The translations under genes were made by a program, and so were the position numbers. 64,000 bases of DNA, from assembly GCF_024298765.1 (NCBI RefSeq), contig NZ_CP101210.1, one strand, 5' to 3'. Positions 33,922 to 44,722 of the stretch are shown here, in pieces. The notes under the pieces were generated by a model, which was given only the letters and a program-made list of their open reading frames with translations, did no database searches and was not told where the DNA came from. The stretch is from Escherichia coli (GTDB lineage: Bacteria > Pseudomonadota > Gammaproteobacteria > Enterobacterales > Enterobacteriaceae). Each line of letters begins with the position of its first letter. Position 1 is the first letter of the stretch.

Positions 33922-34560
33922 ATGCCCGGGCGCTTTGAACTAAAACCAACCCTGGAGAAAGTCTGGCACGCGCCGGACAATTTTCGCTTCATGGACCCGC
34001 TGCCGCCGATGCATCGTCGGGGGATCATTATTGCCGCCATTGTATTGGTGGTCGGATTTCTGCTTCCATCTGATGATACGCCCAACGCGCCGGTGGTGAC
34101 GCGTGAAGCACAGTTAGATATTCAGTCGCAATCACAACCACCGACAGAAGAACAGCTGCGGGCGCAATTAGTTACGCCACAAAATGATCCTGATCAGGTG
34201 GCTCCGGTCGCTCCAGAACCAATACAGGAAGGCCAGCCAGAAGAACAGCCGCAAACCACCCAAACGCAACCATTCCAGTCAGATAGCGGAATTGATAATC
34301 AATGGCGCTCCTATCGTGTCGAACCTGGTAAAACGATGGCGCAACTGTTCCGCGACCACGGACTGCCCGCTACCGATGTCTATGCCATGGCGCAGGTAGA
34401 AGGCGCGGATAAGCCACTGAGTAATTTGCAAAACGGGCAGATGGTGAAAATCCGCCAGAACGCCAGCGGCGTGGTGACGGGCTTAACCATTGATACGGGG
34501 AATAATCAACAGGTCCTGTTTACCCGCCAGCCGGATGGCAGTTTTATTCGTGCGCGGTAG
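33922..34560 (+). CDS. ytfB: Cell-division-associated protein YtfB (OapA/LysM-like C-terminus)
   Basis: Start at [10 protein letters not shown] (212 aa); single TM segment and Pro/Gln-rich linker. Confidence 0.88.
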
Positions 34561-35191
34561 ATGAAGGGTCAACCAAAAGCCAGCTAAGGATTGTCTCTTT
34601 GATGACCTTACGTCTGGCTTCCAGTGCCTGGGGTGAAACCATACTGATGTGATAAACCAGGCCAAGCGTATGCTGGTTGATCAAATAATATCCCCCAAGC
34701 GCAGCAATATTAATATTCACCTGCAATGGGTCGATATCTGGCTTAAAAATATTGTGTTTCTTCCCTTCATCCAATAAGGATTCCATTAACTGCAAGTGCG
34801 CATGGTTAATTTCTAAGAGACGCTGTGATTTTGCATAATGCACACCTTTACTTTGATTTTCACTATGCACAATTTTTAAAAACCAGGGATTAGAAATATA
34901 ATAATCCCATGTAAAATCGATTATTTTCTCAATGGCTTTCTGTGGCGGAAGATCTGAGAAATCAAGGGCCTTTTCTTTTTGTCGAATATCGTTCCAGGTA
35001 TATTCCAGTACTTCGATAAATAAATTTTCTTTATTACCAAAGTGGTGATAAACCGTCTGTTTACTGCACCCCGCGGCCTTGACGATATTATCGACTCTGG
35101 CCCCTTCGTAACCATATTCGGCAAATTCATTAACCGCGCATAACAGCAGCTTTTCTTTCAGGCTCTGTACGTTGCTGGTATCAAGATACAT
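34544..35191 (-). CDS. TetR/AcrR-family transcriptional regulator
   Basis: HTH region [44 protein letters not shown]; start taken at [11 protein letters not shown]-rich; divergent from the downstream operon. Confidence 0.8.
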
Positions 35192-35313: not shown

Positions 35314-35335
35314 ATCAACCAACTAGATGGTTGAT
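35314..35335. promoter_or_regulatory. Candidate TetR operator (inverted repeat ATCAACCA-actaga-TGGTTGAT)
   Basis: Perfect 8-bp arms in the divergent intergenic region between the TetR gene and the SDR gene. Confidence 0.35.
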
Positions 35336-35403: not shown

Positions 35404-36195
35404 ATGAAATCCACTCGTCCTGTTGCCGTGATTACCGGAGCCGCACGTGGTATTGGAAAGGGCTGTGCGCTGGAGCTTGCGCGTGGCGGATTTAATCTGC
35501 TGATTAATGATCGTCCGGATACCGATAGCGTAGAAAAATTACATGCCACACAACAAGAATGTCTGGCGGAAGGCGTGGAAGTGATTTGCTTCCCTGCTGA
35601 TGTTGGCGATCTCTCCCTGCATGAAGAGATGCTCGACGCAGCGCAAAACCAGTGGGGACGTCTGGACTGCCTGCTCAACAACGCAGGCATTTCAGTGAAA
35701 AAACGCGGTGATCTTCTCGACCTCGAACCAGACAGCTTCGACCAAAATATTGCCATTAACACCCGCGCACCGTTCTTCCTCGCTCAGGCATTCAGTAAGC
35801 GCTTACTGGCACAGCCGAAACCGGAAGCAGAACTGCCGCACCGCTCGATTATTTTCGTCAGTTCCATCAACGCCATCATGCTGGCGATGAATCGCGGCGA
35901 ATATACCATTGCCAAAACTGCCGTCTCTGCCGCTGCTCGTCTGTTTGCTGCTCGCCTTTGTAATGAACAAATTGGCGTTTATGAAGTGCGTCCTGGTCTC
36001 ATCAAAACCGATATGACTATTCCGGCAACGGCCTATTACGACGAACTGATTGCCAAAGGTCTGGTGCCGTGGGGACGTTGGGGTTATCCGGCTGATATTG
36101 CTTCCACTGTCCGCGCGATGGCGGAAGGTAAACTGATTTACACCTGTGGTCAGGCGGTCGCCATCGACGGCGGCTTAAGTATGCCGCGCTTCTGA
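35404..36195 (+). CDS. Short-chain dehydrogenase/reductase (SDR) family oxidoreductase
   Basis: 263 aa; TGAARGIG cofactor motif near the N-terminus. Confidence 0.85.
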   Translation: MKSTRPVAVITGAARGIGKGCALELARGGFNLLINDRPDTDSVEKLHATQQECLAEGVEVICFPADVGDLSLHEEMLDAAQNQWGRLDCLLNNAGISVKKRGDLLDLEPDSFDQNIAINTRAPFFLAQAFSKRLLAQPKPEAELPHRSIIFVSSINAIMLAMNRGEYTIAKTAVSAAARLFAARLCNEQIGVYEVRPGLIKTDMTIPATAYYDELIAKGLVPWGRWGYPADIASTVRAMAEGKLIYTCGQAVAIDGGLSMPRF

Positions 36196-36204
36196 GGCTG
36201 AATC

Positions 36205-37047
36205 ATGAGAGATCTGTTACAACGCCCGGATTTATTCAGTATCAATACCGCGACACTGGGCTATAAAACGCCGCTGCCCGCCATTATTGATGCCTGCGCC
36301 GCACGCGGTATTGGCGCCATTGCCCCCTGGCGCAGGGAGTTGCAGGGTGAAGATCTCCAGCAAATCGCCCGCCAGCTTGCTGCCAGTAACATAAACGTTT
36401 CCGGTTTGTGCCGTAGCACCTACTACACCGCACCGACGCTGGCGGAGCGCAAACTGGCGATTGACGATAACCGCCGGGCGCTGGACGACGCCGCTGTACT
36501 GAACGCCGCCTGTTATATGCAGGTGGTTGGCGGTCTGCCAATGGGAACAAAAGATCTGTATGAAGCGCGGGAACAAGTGAAACAAGGGATTCGCCAGTTA
36601 CTGCCACATTCGAAAGAGGTCGGCGTGCCGATTGCGCTGGAGCCGCTACACCCGATGACCGCAGCCGATCGTTCCTGTTTGTGCACGTTACGTCAGGCGC
36701 TGGACTGGTGTGATGAACTCGATCCCGATGGCGAATTTGGCCTCGGCGTGGCGGTAGATGTCTACCATGTCTGGTGGGACCCGGATCTCGCCAGTCAGAT
36801 CCTGCGTGCCGGAAAACGCATCCTCGCGTTTCATGTTTCCGACTGGTTAGTGCCGACCACCGATCTGGTCAATGACCGTGGAATGCCGGGAGATGGTGTC
36901 ATCAATATTCCGTCAATTCGTCGGCTGGTTGAAAACGCCGGATTTAATGGCGCTATTGAACTGGAAATATTCTCACCGTACTGGTGGCAGAAAGATATTA
37001 ACAGCACGCTGGATATTAGCGTCGATCGCATCGCACATTATTGTTAA
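36205..37047 (+). CDS. Sugar phosphate isomerase/epimerase (xylose-isomerase-like TIM barrel)
   Basis: 280 aa; family assigned from overall resemblance only; 9-nt gap to SDR gene. Confidence 0.7.
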   Translation: MRDLLQRPDLFSINTATLGYKTPLPAIIDACAARGIGAIAPWRRELQGEDLQQIARQLAASNINVSGLCRSTYYTAPTLAERKLAIDDNRRALDDAAVLNAACYMQVVGGLPMGTKDLYEAREQVKQGIRQLLPHSKEVGVPIALEPLHPMTAADRSCLCTLRQALDWCDELDPDGEFGLGVAVDVYHVWWDPDLASQILRAGKRILAFHVSDWLVPTTDLVNDRGMPGDGVINIPSIRRLVENAGFNGAIELEIFSPYWWQKDINSTLDISVDRIAHYC

Positions 37048-37056
37048 GGAATAATC

Positions 37057-37833
37057 ATGAGTGACCAACCCGTTCTGTTCAGCAGAGCGGCGGCTTCTTG
37101 CCGCCTGACATTGAACCGTGAAGATAAATGTCATGCTATTAATGAAGAAATGATCGAATCTCTCGACCATTATTTAAATGAAATTGAAAACGACACCACA
37201 TTACGATTAGTCGAATTAACGGCAACCGGCGATAAATTCTTTTGTGCGGGCGGCGATATTAAATCGTGGTCGGCCTATTCGCCATTAGATATGGGCAGAA
37301 AATGGATTAAACGCGGTAACGAGGTTTTTAATCGCCTGCGCAACTTACCCCAATTAACCGTTGCGAATCTCAACGGTCATACCATCGGTGGCGGTATTGA
37401 ACTTGCCTTGTGCTGCGATATTCGTATCGCTCGCCCCGGCGCGAAATTCTCTAACCCGGAAGTGATGCTCGGCATGGTGCCTGGCTGGATGGGCATTGAA
37501 CGCGTGCTTAATCAGGTTGGCCCGGTGGTCGGTCGCCAGATGCTGATGCTGGGTAAACGCCTGACGGCGCAGGAAGCTCAGGTGGCGAATTTAATTGATG
37601 AAGTGGTAGAAAAAGAACAGGTGGAAAGCTGGATGGCGAACCAGTTAGCGCAGCTGGAAAAATGTGGTCCGGTGGCACTGGCACATATTAAGCAACTGAT
37701 TCTGGCGCTGGAAAATAAACACGCCGATTACTCCCACCAGTTACTGGCTGGATTAATGTCCGCCACTCAGGATTGCCAACAGGCGACGCACGCATTTGCC
37801 GAAAAAGCCGGCGTGAGCTTCCACAATCAATAA
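37057..37833 (+). CDS. Enoyl-CoA hydratase/isomerase (crotonase) family protein
   Basis: 258 aa; crotonase-fold motifs (FCAGGDIK, GHTIGGGIELAL). Confidence 0.85.
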   Translation: MSDQPVLFSRAAASCRLTLNREDKCHAINEEMIESLDHYLNEIENDTTLRLVELTATGDKFFCAGGDIKSWSAYSPLDMGRKWIKRGNEVFNRLRNLPQLTVANLNGHTIGGGIELALCCDIRIARPGAKFSNPEVMLGMVPGWMGIERVLNQVGPVVGRQMLMLGKRLTAQEAQVANLIDEVVEKEQVESWMANQLAQLEKCGPVALAHIKQLILALENKHADYSHQLLAGLMSATQDCQQATHAFAEKAGVSFHNQ

Positions 37834-37842
37834 GGAAATTGT

Positions 37843-39384
37843 ATGCGTAAGTTATCAACCGCCGAGACACTGGCGGCGCAAATTCAGGACGGCGCAACCA
37901 TTGCCATTAGCGGCAACGGCGGCGGCATGGTGGAAGCTGACCATATTCTGGCCGCCATTGAAGCGCGCTTTCTGCAAACCGGACACCCGCGCGATCTGAC
38001 ATTAATCCACTCGCTGGGTATTGGCGATCGCGACAGCAAAGGCACTAACCGTTTTGCTCACGCCGAAATGCTCAAACGCATTATTGCCGGACATTTTACC
38101 TGGTCGCCCAAGATGCAGGAACTGGTGAAAAGCAATGCTATTGAAGCCTACTGTTTCCCTGGTGGCGTAATTCAGGCACTGCTGCGGGAGATCGGTGCCG
38201 GACGTCCGGGGCTTTTTACCCACGTTGGGCTGGGATCGTTTGTTGATCCACGCAATGGTGGCGGTAAGTCGAATGAATGCACGACCGACGACCTGGTAGA
38301 ACTGATTGAAATCGACGGTGAAACCAAACTCCGCTATCGCCCTTTCAAAGTGGACTACGCGATTTTGCGCGGCACCTATGCCGATCCGCGTGGCAACGTT
38401 AGCCTCGAAGAAGAAGCGATTGATATGGATAGCTATTCGATGGCGCTGGCAGCACACAACAGTGGCGGCAAAGTGTTTGTACAGGTGCGCGATGTACTGG
38501 AAGCTGGCGCCATTGAACCTCGCAAGGTCAAGCTACCGGGGATTCTGGTCGATGGTATCGTTGAACACCGCGAACAACCGCAAACCTATCTTGGCGGTTA
38601 CGACCTGACCATCAGCGGTCAGCATCGCCGTCTAAGTTCTAACGACGCTATTGAACTGGTTAGTCATCCGGTGCGTCGCCTGATTGCCCGTCGGGCAGCG
38701 CGGGAACTGGCGGCAGGTGCTTCAACCAACTTTGGCTTTGGTATTCCCGGCGGTATTCCTGGGGTTGCACTGCGCGAAGGCGTGCCTTATCAAAGTTTGT
38801 GGCTGAGTGTAGAACAGGGTGTACATAACGGCATGATGCTGGATGATGCTCTGTTCGGCTGCGCCCGTAACGCCGATGCCATTATTCCATCACTCGATCA
38901 ATTCGAATTCTACAGTGGCGGCGGTATCGATATCACCTTCCTCGGCATGGGAGAGATGGATCGGTACGGTAACGTCAACGTATCCCATCTCAATGGCAAT
39001 CTCATTGGCCCCGGCGGCTTCCTCGAAATTGCGCAAAACGCCCGTAAAGTGGTGTTCTGCGGTACGTTCGACGCTAAAGGCAGCAAGATTGATGTAACGC
39101 CTGATGGCCTGCATATCGCCCAGTCAGGTCAAATCCCCAAACTGGTTACCCAGGTGGAAAAAATTACTTTTAGCGCCGCATACGCACAGCAAAGCAGTCA
39201 GGAAGTGCTGTATATCACCGAACGTGCGGTATTCCAGTTAACGGCAGAAGGCGTTGAATTAATTGAGATCGCCCCTGGCGTAGAGATTGACCGCGACATT
39301 CTGCCGTATATGGCCTTCCGTCCGATTATCAGGCACCCACGCCTGATGGAAAGTAGCCTGTTTACGCCAATGGAGGATGCATGA
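37843..39384 (+). CDS. Family I CoA-transferase (fused alpha/beta; propionate/acetate CoA-transferase-like)
   Basis: 513 aa; assigned by resemblance to YdiF/Pct-type CoA transferases. Confidence 0.75.
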   Translation: MRKLSTAETLAAQIQDGATIAISGNGGGMVEADHILAAIEARFLQTGHPRDLTLIHSLGIGDRDSKGTNRFAHAEMLKRIIAGHFTWSPKMQELVKSNAIEAYCFPGGVIQALLREIGAGRPGLFTHVGLGSFVDPRNGGGKSNECTTDDLVELIEIDGETKLRYRPFKVDYAILRGTYADPRGNVSLEEEAIDMDSYSMALAAHNSGGKVFVQVRDVLEAGAIEPRKVKLPGILVDGIVEHREQPQTYLGGYDLTISGQHRRLSSNDAIELVSHPVRRLIARRAARELAAGASTNFGFGIPGGIPGVALREGVPYQSLWLSVEQGVHNGMMLDDALFGCARNADAIIPSLDQFEFYSGGGIDITFLGMGEMDRYGNVNVSHLNGNLIGPGGFLEIAQNARKVVFCGTFDAKGSKIDVTPDGLHIAQSGQIPKLVTQVEKITFSAAYAQQSSQEVLYITERAVFQLTAEGVELIEIAPGVEIDRDILPYMAFRPIIRHPRLMESSLFTPMEDA

Positions 39385-41453
39385 GTCAGCTTGATGAGGC
39401 CATCCTTGATGCACTGACACACGTTACTTTCCCAAAGGGTTTTGCACAGGCAGAACCCGCATGGGTTGTCACGGTAGACGGTGTTGATTACCCACTCTGG
39501 AAAACAGATGCCCTGGTAGTCGGCAGTGGTGCAGCCGGGCTACGTGCAGCTGTGGAACTTAAACGCCGCCAGCAAAATGTGTTAATCGCCACCGCCGGGT
39601 TATATATGGGGACATCGGCATGTTCTGGCTCTGATAAACAAACACTGTTTACCGCCGCTACCGCGGGCAACGGCGACAACTTCGCCAAACTGGCAGAGGC
39701 ACTGGCGAGCGGTGGGGCGATGGATCACGACACCGCTTATGTCGAAGCGGTAGGTTCTCTGCACACTCTTGGCGGGTTGCAATATCTTGGTCTGGAATTA
39801 CCGGAAGATCGCTATGGCGCGATTCTTCGTTATCAAACCGACCATGACGAAGCCGGGCGTGCAACCTCGTGTGGGCCGCGTACCTCAAGGTTAATGGTGA
39901 AAGTGCTGCTGGAAGAAGTACAGCGTCTTGCTATCCCAATGTTGACCAGTGCAACAGTGATTAAACTGCTGCATCAGCGTGACGAAAACGGTGAAGACCG
40001 TGTGGCGGGGGCAATCCTCGCGACCGGTCATCGCGCCCATAACCCATGGGGGCTGGCAATTGTGACTGCGCCCAATGTGGTACTGGCAACAGGAGGGCCT
40101 GGCGAGCTTTATCGCGACAGTGTGTATCCACACAAATGTTTCGGCTCGCTGGGGCTGGCGCTGGAGGAAGGTCTGACGCTAACCAATCTGACTGAAAGCC
40201 AGTTTGGTATCGGCACACCGCGCAGCACGTTTCCGTGGAATTTGTCCGGCACCTATGTGCAGGTGATCCCGTATATCTATTCCGTGGATGCCGAGGGCAA
40301 CGAGTATAACTTCCTCGCGGATTACTATCGCACCACCCAAGAGCTGGCTTCAAACATTTTCCGTAAAGGCTATCAGTGGCCGTTCCACGCCACGCGGGTA
40401 ATGGATTTTGGCTCCAGCTTGTTAGATATGGCGGTGGCGCAAGAGCAGCAACATGGTCGCCAGGTGTTTATGGATTTCAATCGCAATCCTGAAGTGGTGC
40501 CGGGTGACCTGCCCTTCTCATTAGATCGACTGGACGACGACGTTCGCGCGTATCTGGAAAATAACGACGCTCTGGCACCATCGCCCATCGAACGACTGCA
40601 ACGAATGAATCCGCTGTCTATCTCGCTGTATAAGATGCACGGTTACGATCTCACCACGCAGCCATTGCAGTTTGCCATGAATAATCAGCATATGAATGGC
40701 GGCATTGAAGTGGATATCTGGGGACAAACATCTCTGCCCGGTTGTTTTGCTGTGGGGGAAGTTGCTGGCACACACGGCGTCACCCGACCTGGCGGTGCGG
40801 CATTGAATGCCGGGCAGGTTTTTGCTGTTCGTCTGGCACGTTTTATTGGTTGCACGCAAAAGCGGAATATTGATGGAGATATAGCACAGCTGGCAGCTCC
40901 GGCACTGGCTTCTATAAGAGAGATCATTACTCAGGCGCACGATAACGGAACCGGGATGCCGTTGTCGGTTGTGAGGGAAAAAATTCAGGCACGAATGTCT
41001 GACCATGCGGGATTTATTTGTCATGCCGATAAAGTCCGACGCGCCACTCGTGATGCCCTGCTATTGAGTGAATTTGTGCAACGGCATGGATTGGCAATCA
41101 AACATGTGGGTGAAGTTGCCGAGCTGTTTATGTGGCGGCATATGGCGCTGACTTCTGCCGCGGTATTAACACAATTAACGCATTATATTGATGCTGGTGG
41201 TGGTAGCCGTGGGGCGCGTATGGTTATAGATCCACAAGGCAAATGCCTACCACAAACTCGTCGCGGCGCAAAAGAAGAATGGCGTTTTCGCTCTGAACTC
41301 GCTGAAGACAAAAATCACAAATTAACAATTCAATATTCGCAAGGTTCTTTTATTACCGAAGTAAAGTCTTTACGTATTCAACCGTGTATTAACGGTATTT
41401 ACTTTGAAAAAAACTGGCCAGACTTTTTAAAGGGAGACATTTACACACAATAA
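39381..41453 (+). CDS. FAD-dependent oxidoreductase (fumarate reductase/succinate dehydrogenase flavoprotein-like)
   Basis: 690 aa; dinucleotide-binding motif VVGSGAAGLRAAVEL; ATGA overlap with the upstream CoA-transferase. Confidence 0.75.
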   Translation: MSQLDEAILDALTHVTFPKGFAQAEPAWVVTVDGVDYPLWKTDALVVGSGAAGLRAAVELKRRQQNVLIATAGLYMGTSACSGSDKQTLFTAATAGNGDNFAKLAEALASGGAMDHDTAYVEAVGSLHTLGGLQYLGLELPEDRYGAILRYQTDHDEAGRATSCGPRTSRLMVKVLLEEVQRLAIPMLTSATVIKLLHQRDENGEDRVAGAILATGHRAHNPWGLAIVTAPNVVLATGGPGELYRDSVYPHKCFGSLGLALEEGLTLTNLTESQFGIGTPRSTFPWNLSGTYVQVIPYIYSVDAEGNEYNFLADYYRTTQELASNIFRKGYQWPFHATRVMDFGSSLLDMAVAQEQQHGRQVFMDFNRNPEVVPGDLPFSLDRLDDDVRAYLENNDALAPSPIERLQRMNPLSISLYKMHGYDLTTQPLQFAMNNQHMNGGIEVDIWGQTSLPGCFAVGEVAGTHGVTRPGGAALNAGQVFAVRLARFIGCTQKRNIDGDIAQLAAPALASIREIITQAHDNGTGMPLSVVREKIQARMSDHAGFICHADKVRRATRDALLLSEFVQRHGLAIKHVGEVAELFMWRHMALTSAAVLTQLTHYIDAGGGSRGARMVIDPQGKCLPQTRRGAKEEWRFRSELAEDKNHKLTIQYSQGSFITEVKSLRIQPCINGIYFEKNWPDFLKGDIYTQ

Positions 41454-41545
41454 TTTCCAATATTTCCTCTGTACCTGATTTTTATTGCCTATTACATGGA
41501 AATACCAACAACCAGGGTTTATTAATATAATTAAAAGGTTTAAAA

Positions 41546-42823
41546 ATGAATAAAATAAAGAATTATCGATGGTATATGATTGCCCTCGTATGCTTTATCA
41601 CTGTAATCAATTATCTGGACAGAACGGCGTTAGGTATTGCGGCTCCAACGATTATGGAGACAACCGGAATAACCAAAGAACAATATTCATGGATTGTCAG
41701 TGCATTCCAGTTGGCCTATACATTAGGGCAACCGGTAATGGGCTTCTTTATTGATACCGTGGGTCTGAAGTTAAGTTTTGCGATATGTGCCGCAATTTGG
41801 GGCCTGGCGACAATGGGCCATGCACTAACCGGAACGTGGTCTGGTCTGGCATTTATGCGCGCCCTGATGGGTTTCAGCGAAGCGTCGGCAATTCCGGCGG
41901 GTGTAAAAACCGCATCAACATGGTTCCCGGCAAAAGAGCGTGGCGTGGCGACAGGTGTTTTCAATATGGGCACCTCACTCGGCGCGATGCTTGCTCCACC
42001 GTTGATTGCCTGGTGCATTATGTTTCATAGCTGGCAATTTGCGTTTATTGTTTCAGGTAGCCTTGCTTTGCTCGCGGCTTTATTTTGGTTCTTTTGTTAT
42101 AAAGATCCGAAAGATGCCAAACGCCTTTCTGATGAAGAGCGCCACTATATTGAATCAGGACAAGAACAGCATCTTAAAACAGATAAGAAAGAAAAAACAT
42201 CAATCAAGCATATCCTCAGCCAACGTAATTTCTGGGGGATTGGCATCGCGCGTTTTCTCGCAGACCCGGCATGGGGAACCATTAACTTCTGGGTGCCGAT
42301 TTTCTTCGTCGAAACGCTGCATTTTAGCCTGAAAGAAATTGCCATGTTCGTCTGGCTGCCTTTCCTGCTGGGCGATCTCGGCTGTTTAGCCAGTGGTTTT
42401 GTCGCGAAGTTCTTCCACGATCGCGGCGTGAGTTTAATTAACTCACGAAGAATTACCTTCACTATTGCAGCCGTCATTATGATGACGATTGGCCTGGTGA
42501 GTATTGTCGAAAATCCCTACATTGCCGTATTACTGATTAGTATTGGCGCGTTCTCGCATCAATGCCTTTCTACTGTAGCAGCAACTCTGGGTGGCGATCT
42601 GTTCAAAAAAGACGAAGTAGCTACCGCAGTGGGTATGGCAGGAGCCTGTGCGTGGAGCGGTCAGTTGATTTTCAACCTGTTCATCGGGGCATTCGTTCAC
42701 ATTATCGGCTTCGCGCCGTTCTTTATTGCCCTGGCTTTCTTTGACATTATTGGCGCCATTGCGCTGTGGATGCTTATCAAAGTTAAAGACGAAGAACTAC
42801 AAGTACAGTTAGCGACAAGCTAA
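41546..42823 (+). CDS. MFS transporter (anion:cation symporter family, hexuronate/glucarate-transporter-like)
   Basis: 425 aa 12-TM ORF; N-terminus NYLDRTALGIAAP typical of ExuT/GudP-like carriers. Confidence 0.82.
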   Translation: MNKIKNYRWYMIALVCFITVINYLDRTALGIAAPTIMETTGITKEQYSWIVSAFQLAYTLGQPVMGFFIDTVGLKLSFAICAAIWGLATMGHALTGTWSGLAFMRALMGFSEASAIPAGVKTASTWFPAKERGVATGVFNMGTSLGAMLAPPLIAWCIMFHSWQFAFIVSGSLALLAALFWFFCYKDPKDAKRLSDEERHYIESGQEQHLKTDKKEKTSIKHILSQRNFWGIGIARFLADPAWGTINFWVPIFFVETLHFSLKEIAMFVWLPFLLGDLGCLASGFVAKFFHDRGVSLINSRRITFTIAAVIMMTIGLVSIVENPYIAVLLISIGAFSHQCLSTVAATLGGDLFKKDEVATAVGMAGACAWSGQLIFNLFIGAFVHIIGFAPFFIALAFFDIIGAIALWMLIKVKDEELQVQLATS

Positions 42824-42832
42824 TTATTTTAC

Positions 42833-42875
42833 ATAGAAACGCTATAATTTAGCTTTGTAGCGTTTCTATTTTTCT
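42833..42875 (+). terminator. Rho-independent terminator after the MFS gene
   Basis: ATAGAAACGCT...AGCGTTTCTAT 11-bp stem followed by TTTTCT. Confidence 0.6.
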
Positions 42876-42960
42876 CATAAATTAAACGTCTCTTCCAAAA
42901 CGTTCAGTATCTACTGGCATTGCTTCGCAAATTTATGATTTAGATATCAAAATAACTATT

Positions 42961-44228
42961 CTAAATTGCCCCCCTGAATGCCTCTGCCATTAACTCTTGC
43001 TCACGACCAGGTAATCGAAGACGCTCGGCAATGATTCGCCACTGACTGACAATCCCTCTAAAATTAGCAATAATGTCATCTGCTTCTGTCAAACCAAGTC
43101 GAAAATACTCCGCAACTTCTCGAGCTAATTCCAAATCAAGTGCATTATCATTTCTGTAATATTGAGTTTTAGACCGTCAGACCTGGCAACAGGATTCAAA
43201 TCATATGCCTCAGAAAGCCGCCAACCTTTTCCCGGTATCAAGATATATCCATGATTACGTAAATGGTCATCGGTATTAGAAACAAGAATATTAAAAACAA
43301 TCCTGGACCAGAGTTCCTTAAGGTCAGTATTAGTCTGCGCTCCATGTCTGATAAGAACATCTGCTAATTCCAGATAACTCACACCTGTAGAGGCATCTTC
43401 ACCATCCTGATGCCTGGTTAGTGTCATAGCCGAAGCAAAATGCAGACGCCTTCCCGCATTAGTGCGGTCAAAACGACGAACCATAAAACAATGGTAATTG
43501 CTGGCAAATTTATGCGCCTGAGCAGGTGCAACATTCAGTCCACAGCCAACAGCAAGTGCATTAACGACCATTTCCCATCCACCAACATCATACTCATCTT
43601 TTACACTGGGAAATTTAGCGATGTAGAGATGCCCAGCTTCATCAACAACACTGGCTTTCGGACGTGCCCCCCCTAATGATCCCCCCGGAGCGATTAGCAT
43701 TCTTAACCATTTTTGCCCCATTAGCTCTTTATTATCAGGATCTTCTTCAATTGCCCGGCTAGCCCTTTCCAGACTCGCTATTTCGGTAAATGGTGGGGCT
43801 GCAACATCAATGCGATTATCAAGAAACTCTCCAGCGTCTTCACGTTTGTATCGAAGAGCCCCAACCCGATAAAGATCATGAACACCTAGTAGATAATCAG
43901 ACTCATAAAGGTGGGAGTCTTTATCACATAACCCGTCTCGAATATCCCTCTCAAAACGACGCTTCATTAGCATACGCCCCCAACGATCCGGGCAGGAATC
44001 ACTAAATGCACCAAATTTATCCTTTGGAGGAATTGGGTACTGTGCTCCCTCATACAACATTATTTCAGGATCTAACTGAATGAAATTAAGTGAAGGATCT
44101 GCAAGCGCCTTTTTATCGTACTCAAACTCAAATATCTCACGCGTCCGAGTGCGGCGACTGTGTAAATAACCAATCCGCTCCGGACCATCCAGGCCTTCCC
44201 AATCCGCATACACTCCGATTAATGCCAT
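42961..44228 (-). pseudogene. HipA-family serine/threonine kinase toxin, frameshifted (367-aa ORF plus ~56 codons continuing in another frame)
   Basis: HipA motifs (APGGSLGGARPK, DDHLRNHG, AYDLNP); ORF stops at 43125 but frame continues to stop at 42961 after a 1-nt shift in an A run near 43151-43153. Confidence 0.7.
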
Positions 44229-44230
44229 AA

Positions 44231-44722
44231 TTAATTTCCTTTTAACGGTTTTTTTATCGGTTTTAATAGTGCTGCAAGAGAGGTTGATGTTTCTCCTGTA
44301 ATAGATGGCGTCGAGCCTTCTGCCAGTGCTGTTAAATCCGTGGTGAGATGACCTTCTTTCTCGTGCCTCATCTGCAATGAGGCTGTCTGAGAACCTTCTT
44401 CATTCTTACTTGATGCACGAGAAAGCCCTCTTTTTTTAATCAAACGGGAATCCTGGAGCTGACGCCCTAAGTCGTCTTCAGCTGCAAGCTTATTTAAATC
44501 CGTTTCCAGGCCCAAAACCTGCATCACAGACAAATATGCCCCTATCGTGACCCCTGCACTTCCTGACTCCAGAGAGCGCAATGTTATTGGCGACATCCCA
44601 GCACGTTCAGCAACTTGCTTTGCGGTAAGCCTGCGTCGTAAACGAGCAAGTTTCAGCCGCTCACCAAATTCACTAAGCATCTGATTCGTATAAGGGAGTA
44701 ACGGTGCTGTTTTTTTACCCAT
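44231..44722 (-). CDS. HipB-like XRE-family HTH antitoxin with long Ser/Thr-rich C-terminal extension
   Basis: 163 aa; [26 protein letters not shown]; stop 2 nt before hipA-like start. Confidence 0.75.

Follow-up and report, generated by a model that had tools for sequence, protein, structure and literature searches.

A TetR-linked Escherichia coli operon with an SdhA/FrdA-like flavoprotein is a candidate for CoA-dependent catabolism of a uronate-like or hydroxylated alicyclic acid

The cyclohexanecarboxylate (bad/ali) pathway of Rhodopseudomonas palustris proceeds via coenzyme A (CoA) activation, alpha,beta-dehydrogenation, a crotonase-type hydratase and a hydroxyacyl-CoA dehydrogenase of the short-chain dehydrogenase/reductase (SDR) family. 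Within a 64,000-nt stretch of Escherichia coli DNA (hereafter the window, to which all its coordinates refer), six tightly packed genes encode an SDR oxidoreductase, a TIM-barrel protein, a crotonase of the enoyl-CoA hydratase family (ECH), a CoA-transferase (CoAT), a flavin adenine dinucleotide (FAD)-binding flavoprotein and a major facilitator superfamily (MFS) carrier (Table 1). For this operon we tentatively favor, with somewhat less than even confidence, a TetR-controlled, beta-oxidation-like, CoA-dependent catabolism of an imported uronate-like or hydroxylated alicyclic acid. The reaction logic proposed resembles that of bad/ali on a ring acid, but the operon has a transferase in place of the ligase, an SdhA/FrdA-like flavoprotein in place of the acyl-CoA dehydrogenase (ACAD) and an additional TIM-barrel enzyme, and it encodes neither an ACAD nor a second, BadI-type ring-cleaving crotonase.

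Two further described systems come close. The cai operon also combines a crotonase, CoA transfer and a flavin step, and the original prediction likened the locus to cai and enoate-reductase pathways. This proved a loose analogy, the crotonase being the only cai-defining family in the window operon; cai was rejected on gene content: where cai has CaiB, CaiA and CaiT, the operon has a transferase of family I, a flavoprotein resembling FrdA, and a carrier of the MFS or tripartite ATP-independent periplasmic (TRAP) type. The deoxyribonate pathway of Klebsiella michiganensis resembles the operon in sugar-acid catabolism via acyl-CoA intermediates and in MFS uptake, but its cluster, with its own locus tags (BWI76_RS23695-23730), consists of different enzymes, namely a CoA synthetase, a hydroxyacyl-CoA dehydrogenase, a thiolase, a glycerate kinase and a lactonase, and was likewise rejected (PMC6365646). 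Comparison of the whole operon with cai and with this Klebsiella cluster thus revealed no orthology to a characterized pathway. Consistent with the original description of the operon as uncharacterized, its homologs carry generic names only, and full-text literature searches returned no paper on it.

Enzyme families were assigned by NCBIfam profile search, by Pfam on orthologs and by sequence searches of the PDB, and all six family calls made originally hold. So do the gene positions, the 9-nt gaps (SDR/TIM, TIM/ECH and ECH/CoAT), the single ATGA overlap (between the CoAT and flavoprotein genes) and the terminator, which match the open reading frames (ORFs) and the stem/T-run. In an identical E. 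coli strain, RefSeq calls the same six genes and names them only generically. Except for one generic SDR model, no protein of the operon passes an NCBIfam equivalog cutoff.

The SDR matches NF009386 (420 bits) and, in the PDB, 4da9 and 4one at about 1e-56; its NNAG92 motif, Ser153/154 and Tyr167-x3-Lys171 are all present. The TIM barrel carries PF01261 and matches 3qc0 and 3ju2, two structural-genomics entries with no assigned function, at 1e-85, and IolI at a weak 2e-5. It scores 28, 25, 21 and 22 bits against the curated isomerase models IolO, Hyi, OtnI and FrlC, versus cutoffs of 300-353, and is putatively a keto-sugar or keto-cyclitol isomerase/epimerase. The crotonase adopts an ECH_1 fold, with a 3-hydroxypropionyl-CoA dehydratase and a short-chain enoyl-CoA hydratase as its top PDB matches, and Glu115 (GGGIE115) and Glu135 (PE135) show the canonical 20-residue spacing of two catalytic glutamates. 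The CoAT (PF01144) matches both pcaI-like and pcaJ-like halves in one chain and aligns over its full length with YdiF (2ahu; 1e-113), the acetate/short-chain acyl-CoA transferase of E. coli K-12; YdiF shares the fused alpha/beta family I fold and is a paralog of the window CoAT with other genomic partners. Glu324 of the CoAT aligns with YdiF Glu333, the catalytic glutamate that forms the enzyme-CoA thioester. With these catalytic residues intact, the CoAT, crotonase and SDR enzymes look active.

The flavoprotein possesses a FAD_binding_2 domain, and its AlphaFold2 (AF2) model, with a predicted local distance difference test (pLDDT) score of 90.9, superposes on full-length FrdA and SdhA, its nearest solved folds, in a four-domain fold at 15-18% identity. 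His437 and Arg469 are conserved and correspond to the His/Arg carboxylate-site pair of NadB and FrdA, whereas an invariant Gly276 stands at the position of NadB His244. The dicarboxylate-site set of two His and two Arg is therefore not complete, and the capping domain, including its Arg, is not alignable. The window flavoprotein has no His aligned at the covalent-FAD position and no iron-sulfur partner gene. FrdB/SdhB-type iron-sulfur and membrane-anchor genes are absent from the window and from every related locus, and a respiratory fumarate reductase or succinate dehydrogenase was rejected on this gene content. The C-terminal stretch of about 200 residues has no Pfam match. Sequence and structure databases hold no homolog of curated function, and fold searches of the PDB and AFDB50 gave no functionally annotated close relative. 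The family comprises hundreds of 50%-identity clusters from many phyla, with no characterized member.

The best evidence for the role of the flavoprotein comes from three sister clusters found via the TIM barrel. Each encodes a TetR_C_29 regulator, an SDR (46-48% identity) and a TIM barrel (54-57% identity), yet has an ACAD and a DUF993 protein in place of the flavoprotein and the ECH. One of them has a confirmed CoAT (53% identity), and in another a CoA_trans gene adjoins the cluster. The ACADs are of the short-chain or cyclohexanecarbonyl-CoA type and score well against cyclohexane-1-carbonyl-CoA dehydrogenase models; in the Marinobacterium variant, electron transfer flavoprotein (ETF) and ETF-quinone oxidoreductase (ETF-QO) genes lie alongside. 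This swap argues for ACAD-equivalent alpha,beta-dehydrogenation by the flavoprotein. The DUF993 proteins (L091, 7829-9004; L095, 6832-7998; L090, 5644-6813), which match no NCBIfam model, may replace the crotonase. A FldB-like flavodoxin gene lies 3' of the operon in two lineages, namely a Salmonella plasmid copy (after the MFS gene) and Sodalis; it suggests an electron partner and also counts in favor of the main reading.

The carrier provides a clue to the substrate. TIGR00893, the model of the ACS subfamily (DgoT/ExuT/GudP), is by far the best-scoring family for the MFS protein (314.7 bits versus a cutoff of 395). The E. coli carrier and its Klebsiella or Salmonella counterpart share only about 50% identity. 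An AT-rich spacer of 92 nt separates its gene from that of the flavoprotein, and its GC content is 0.44-0.46, versus 0.51-0.56 for the enzyme genes (spacer and gene together, 41454-42823); both features fit a separately acquired transporter cassette. In a second E. coli allele a DctQMP TRAP system replaces the MFS gene (1,685 genomes with the MFS allele, 1,468 with the TRAP allele), so that the transporter cassette comes in two forms that stand in for each other. The order TetR, (MaoC) SDR-TIM-ECH-CoAT-FAD, DctQMP recurs in Rhodocyclaceae and Uliginosibacterium. Between E. coli and the Rhodocyclaceae operon, DctP is 75% and DctM 85% identical whereas the enzymes are less alike, and we therefore treat the TRAP system as a cognate importer. 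The transporter of the conserved module is always of the organic-anion type. Together with the ACAD of the sister clusters, these MFS and TRAP anion carriers support the logic originally suggested for the operon, namely organic-anion uptake, CoA transfer, hydration and a flavin step.

TRAP systems transport carboxylates. The top PDB matches of the E. coli DctP are 13 DctP-type binding proteins (1e-71 to 1e-56). Four of these 13, 4x8r, 4n8y, 4n91 and 4mhf, bind glucuronate or galacturonate, and a fifth, 4n15, served as modeling template for the glucuronate binder STM3169 (PMC7660916, PMC11668362), whose ligand-binding residues are Arg150, Arg170 and Asn210 (PMC7660916). The DctP motifs GARS, RVQ and AEN are conserved in alignments to 4ovr, 4x8r, 4n8y and 4n15 and are taken to hold the STM3169-type Arg/Arg/Asn residues; these Arg/Arg/Asn-bearing motifs are shared with the hexuronate TRAP systems (STM3169, Apre_1383, Bpro_3107 and Bamb_6123). 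Identity to the hexuronate binders is roughly 45-50% by eye. The E. coli DctP nevertheless differs from them in its N-terminal binding loop (QDKSHP against PADYP), and its genes are linked to CoA enzymes, not to UxaC/UxuAB as in hexuronate TRAP systems. A carboxylate carrier with a uronate-like binding protein makes a carboxylated six-membered-ring polyol the probable substrate. We thus infer that the compound is most likely a six-membered-ring polyhydroxy carboxylate, either a hexuronate or deoxy-uronate or a hydroxylated cyclohexane or cyclohexene carboxylate.

The original unit of six genes stands as a single operon, yet it left out the divergent TetR gene and a palindrome in the TetR/SDR intergenic region. 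TetR orthologs contain TetR_N and TetR_C_29 domains, and a TetR_C_29 regulator goes along with the SDR and TIM genes in all related clusters. Among E. coli, E. albertii, K. oxytoca and Salmonella the palindrome core, CAACCAAC(T/C)AGATGGTTGATCTTT, does not vary although its flanks do, the pattern expected of a repressor operator; the palindrome is accordingly a probable TetR operator. A TetR_N domain, a divergent layout and a conserved palindrome, the features looked for in a local TetR repressor, are all found here. A simple promoter scan of the TetR/SDR interval turned up no sigma-70 match.

Table 1. Features of the operon and its control region (positions within the window)
Feature	Position	Strand	Description
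TetR/AcrR-family regulator	34544-35191	-	divergent from SDR; 215 aa; 648 nt with the RefSeq start
Palindrome	35314-35335	none	ATCAACCA-N6-TGGTTGAT, TetR/SDR intergenic region; probable TetR operator
SDR	35404-36195	+	classical SDR oxidoreductase, 263 aa
TIM barrel	36205-37047	+	xylose-isomerase-like (AP_endonuc_2), 280 aa
Crotonase (ECH)	37057-37833	+	enoyl-CoA hydratase family, 258 aa
CoA-transferase (CoAT)	37843-39384	+	fused family I, YdiF/propionate-CoA-transferase type, 513 aa
Flavoprotein (FAD)	39381-41453	+	SdhA/FrdA/NadB superfamily, 690 aa
MFS carrier	41546-42823	+	anion:cation symporter, probably DgoT/ExuT-like subfamily, 425 aa
Intrinsic terminator	42833-42877	+	15-bp stem, then T-run (stem and T-run at 42833-42869)

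From gene content and the sister clusters we infer the following order of steps. The acid would be imported via the MFS carrier, or via TRAP in the alternative allele, with TetR released from the conserved palindrome, and the YdiF-type CoA-transferase would then form the thioester. The SdhA/FrdA-like flavoprotein would carry out alpha,beta-dehydrogenation beside the carboxyl or thioester group, the job of the ACAD in the sister clusters, after which the crotonase would hydrate or dehydrate the enoyl-CoA. Subsequently, the SDR would interconvert hydroxy and keto groups, the TIM-barrel enzyme would isomerize or epimerize the keto intermediate, and the same transferase would pass the CoA on. The overall logic of such a route is familiar; what would be new is the enzyme set, in particular an SdhA/FrdA-type flavoprotein in the dehydrogenase slot. 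A broader proposal, which we regard as doubtful, is that the flavoprotein represents a new functional family of the SdhA/FrdA/NadB superfamily, a soluble enzyme interchangeable with ACADs that would act on sugar-like ring acids, or on their CoA thioesters, as an alpha,beta-dehydrogenase or ene-reductase. The operon would then constitute a previously undescribed route by which most gut E. coli process uronate-like or hydroaromatic acids with the help of CoA, one that is invisible in K-12.

The context of the flavoprotein family was surveyed by scanning one genome per species and comparing synteny. The order TetR, SDR-TIM-ECH-CoAT-FAD is conserved in Klebsiella, Salmonella, Sodalis, Rhodocyclaceae and Uliginosibacterium. 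Across phyla, the family is linked mainly to sugar and sugar-acid genes, and CoAT and ECH are patchy within it. Brenneria has TetR-SDR-TIM-FAD without the CoA enzymes. The arrangement in Pseudescherichia, Phytobacter and Mangrovibacter is TetR-SDR-Gfo/Idh/MocA-TIM-MFS-FAD, and that in Lentisphaeria and Opitutia is TIM-Gfo-SDR-FAD. Alphaproteobacterial loci place the flavoprotein with a sugar ABC transporter, LacI, two GMC oxidoreductases, a levoglucosan-dehydrogenase-like Gfo and a KdgK-like kinase, and some of them also have CoAT, ECH and an aldehyde dehydrogenase. In Planctomycetota (37-40% identity), it lies with an SDR, Eda, KdgK and a GltD-like or OYE-like redox protein. Family-wide, KdgK-like kinases adjoin the flavoprotein gene at 23 loci and Eda at 10, and an Eda-KdgK fusion also occurs.

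Two metagenome-assembled genomes (MAGs) show unusual arrangements. A Lentisphaeria MAG (locus L008, 7052-12082) carries TIM-Gfo/Idh/MocA-SDR-FAD amid the housekeeping genes tig, clpP, clpX and ksgA, with no transporter or regulator near. In a Desulfobacterales MAG (locus L065, 1-18777), a family member of 39% identity lies between two acryloyl-CoA-reductase-like ACADs, and a CoAT, an ECH, two MaoC dehydratases, an IlvD-type sugar-acid dehydratase and a DapA-type aldolase are encoded nearby.

Several observations weigh against the favored reading. The KdgK, Eda, Gfo/Idh/MocA and GMC neighbors in Alphaproteobacteria and Planctomycetota point to sugar-acid chemistry, not beta-oxidation. In a neighbor-joining tree of the flavoprotein, loci with CoAT and ECH are scattered and form no single clade, and neither gene occurs in Brenneria, sister to the enterobacterial clade, or in the sister group of the Rhodocyclaceae clade; given this patchiness, the flavoprotein may act on the free acid, as all characterized relatives do. 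The residue pair aligned with His437/Arg469 binds a free carboxylate in FrdA and NadB, which would suit such a substrate. Furthermore, no thiolase or ring-cleaving enzyme is encoded in the operon, and the carrier of the Brenneria cluster is PcaK-like, an aromatic-acid type, so that the substrate class proposed above is tentative.

The strongest competing explanation, which we nonetheless consider unlikely, is a sugar-acid route to 2-keto-3-deoxygluconate (KDG) or a similar compound, in which the flavoprotein, SDR and TIM barrel would oxidize, isomerize and reduce the free acid while CoAT and ECH would be accessory, either eliminating water at the beta position with the help of CoA in place of a dehydratase or clearing a short-chain hydroxy acid left over as a fragment, for example 3-hydroxypropionate. 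The KdgK-like, Eda, Eda-KdgK and Gfo/Idh/MocA neighbors and the sugar ABC transporters fit this scheme, as do the SDR-FAD pair, the most widely conserved in flavoprotein-family loci, and the uronate-like TRAP binding protein. So do the affinities of the ECH to 3-hydroxypropionyl-CoA dehydratase and short-chain hydratases and of the CoAT to short-chain YdiF, and the aldehyde dehydrogenase next to CoAT and ECH in alphaproteobacterial variants. The enterobacterial operon encodes no sugar-acid dehydratase, kinase or aldolase: the missing dehydratase accords with a KDG route, whereas the lack of its own kinase or aldolase speaks against one. Moreover, the KdgK and Eda links were seen for family members whose identity to the E. 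coli flavoprotein is only 37-55%, and the ACAD in the flavoprotein slot of the sister clusters argues for dehydrogenation at the thioester level.

A second and quite improbable alternative runs the flavin step in reverse, as an anaerobic electron sink in which an alpha,beta-unsaturated acid or enoyl-CoA would be reduced with flavodoxin, for instance shikimate-type acids toward cyclohexanecarboxylates, much as fumarate, urocanate or caffeate is reduced. The fumarate-reductase fold would suit this role, as would the flavodoxin gene attached to the operon in two lineages. The GltD-like or OYE-like redox partners of distant family members, the IolI-like TIM barrel with inositol-dehydrogenase-like Gfo partners, and the PcaK-like carrier in Brenneria are also in line with it. 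However, the ETF-QO of Marinobacterium indicates the oxidative direction, the operon occurs in aerobic Alpha- and Betaproteobacteria, and no respiratory or energy-coupling genes are present. Finally, although CoA transfer and crotonase logic are held in common and K. michiganensis offers a precedent for a sugar-acid pathway with acyl-CoA intermediates (PMC6365646), it is extremely improbable that the operon is orthologous to cai, to the deoxyribonate pathway or to the canonical hexuronate genes, as the type III transferase, ACAD and BCCT carrier of cai are all absent and no equivalog beyond the generic SDR model is reached.

On the E. coli chromosome, the operon is located between ytfB and rplI. 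The ECH-CoAT-FAD segment is found in 3,117 of 5,426 complete E. coli genomes, and the locus is also carried by E. albertii and E. marmotae; K. oxytoca and some Salmonella have all seven genes, TetR included, at this site. K-12 retains only the ytfA pseudogene, a remnant of the TetR gene, with yjfZ in the place of the operon, which explains why the operon has gone unstudied; literature mentions list ytfA merely as a variably present TetR gene. A PLSDB search showed almost no plasmid copies, the matches being very large records, so the locus resides essentially on chromosomes. One complete copy of the operon, with 65-79% protein identity, does sit on a plasmid fragment of IncFII type from Salmonella (locus L088, 1-18846), adjoining Tn3 resolvase/transposase genes.

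Some E. coli and Shigella carry a decayed allele (locus L087, 9001-11960), in which the TIM barrel is cut to 207 aa and the CoAT is split while the TRAP genes are intact. Insertion sequences (IS) recur at the locus (L086, 9946-11915, among others): two strains have ISVsa5 within the operon region, EC-TO75 has IS1 in dctM, and several strains have IS1 in dctP. The interval from the operon to rplI holds two minus-strand genes (42961-44722), one for a hipA-like toxin and one for a helix-turn-helix antitoxin; RefSeq marks a frameshift in the toxin gene in the identical strain, and its ORF in the window is only 367 aa. This position is taken by yjfZ in K-12 and by an EamA gene in Klebsiella and Salmonella.

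Collectively, a locus present in over half of sequenced E. coli was lost by K-12 and was thereby missed by classical genetics. Naming its substrate would place one more nutrient in the gut or environmental niches of enterobacteria, and a function for one member of the flavoprotein family would annotate the whole family. An SdhA-like enzyme replacing an acyl-CoA dehydrogenase would be new enzymology.

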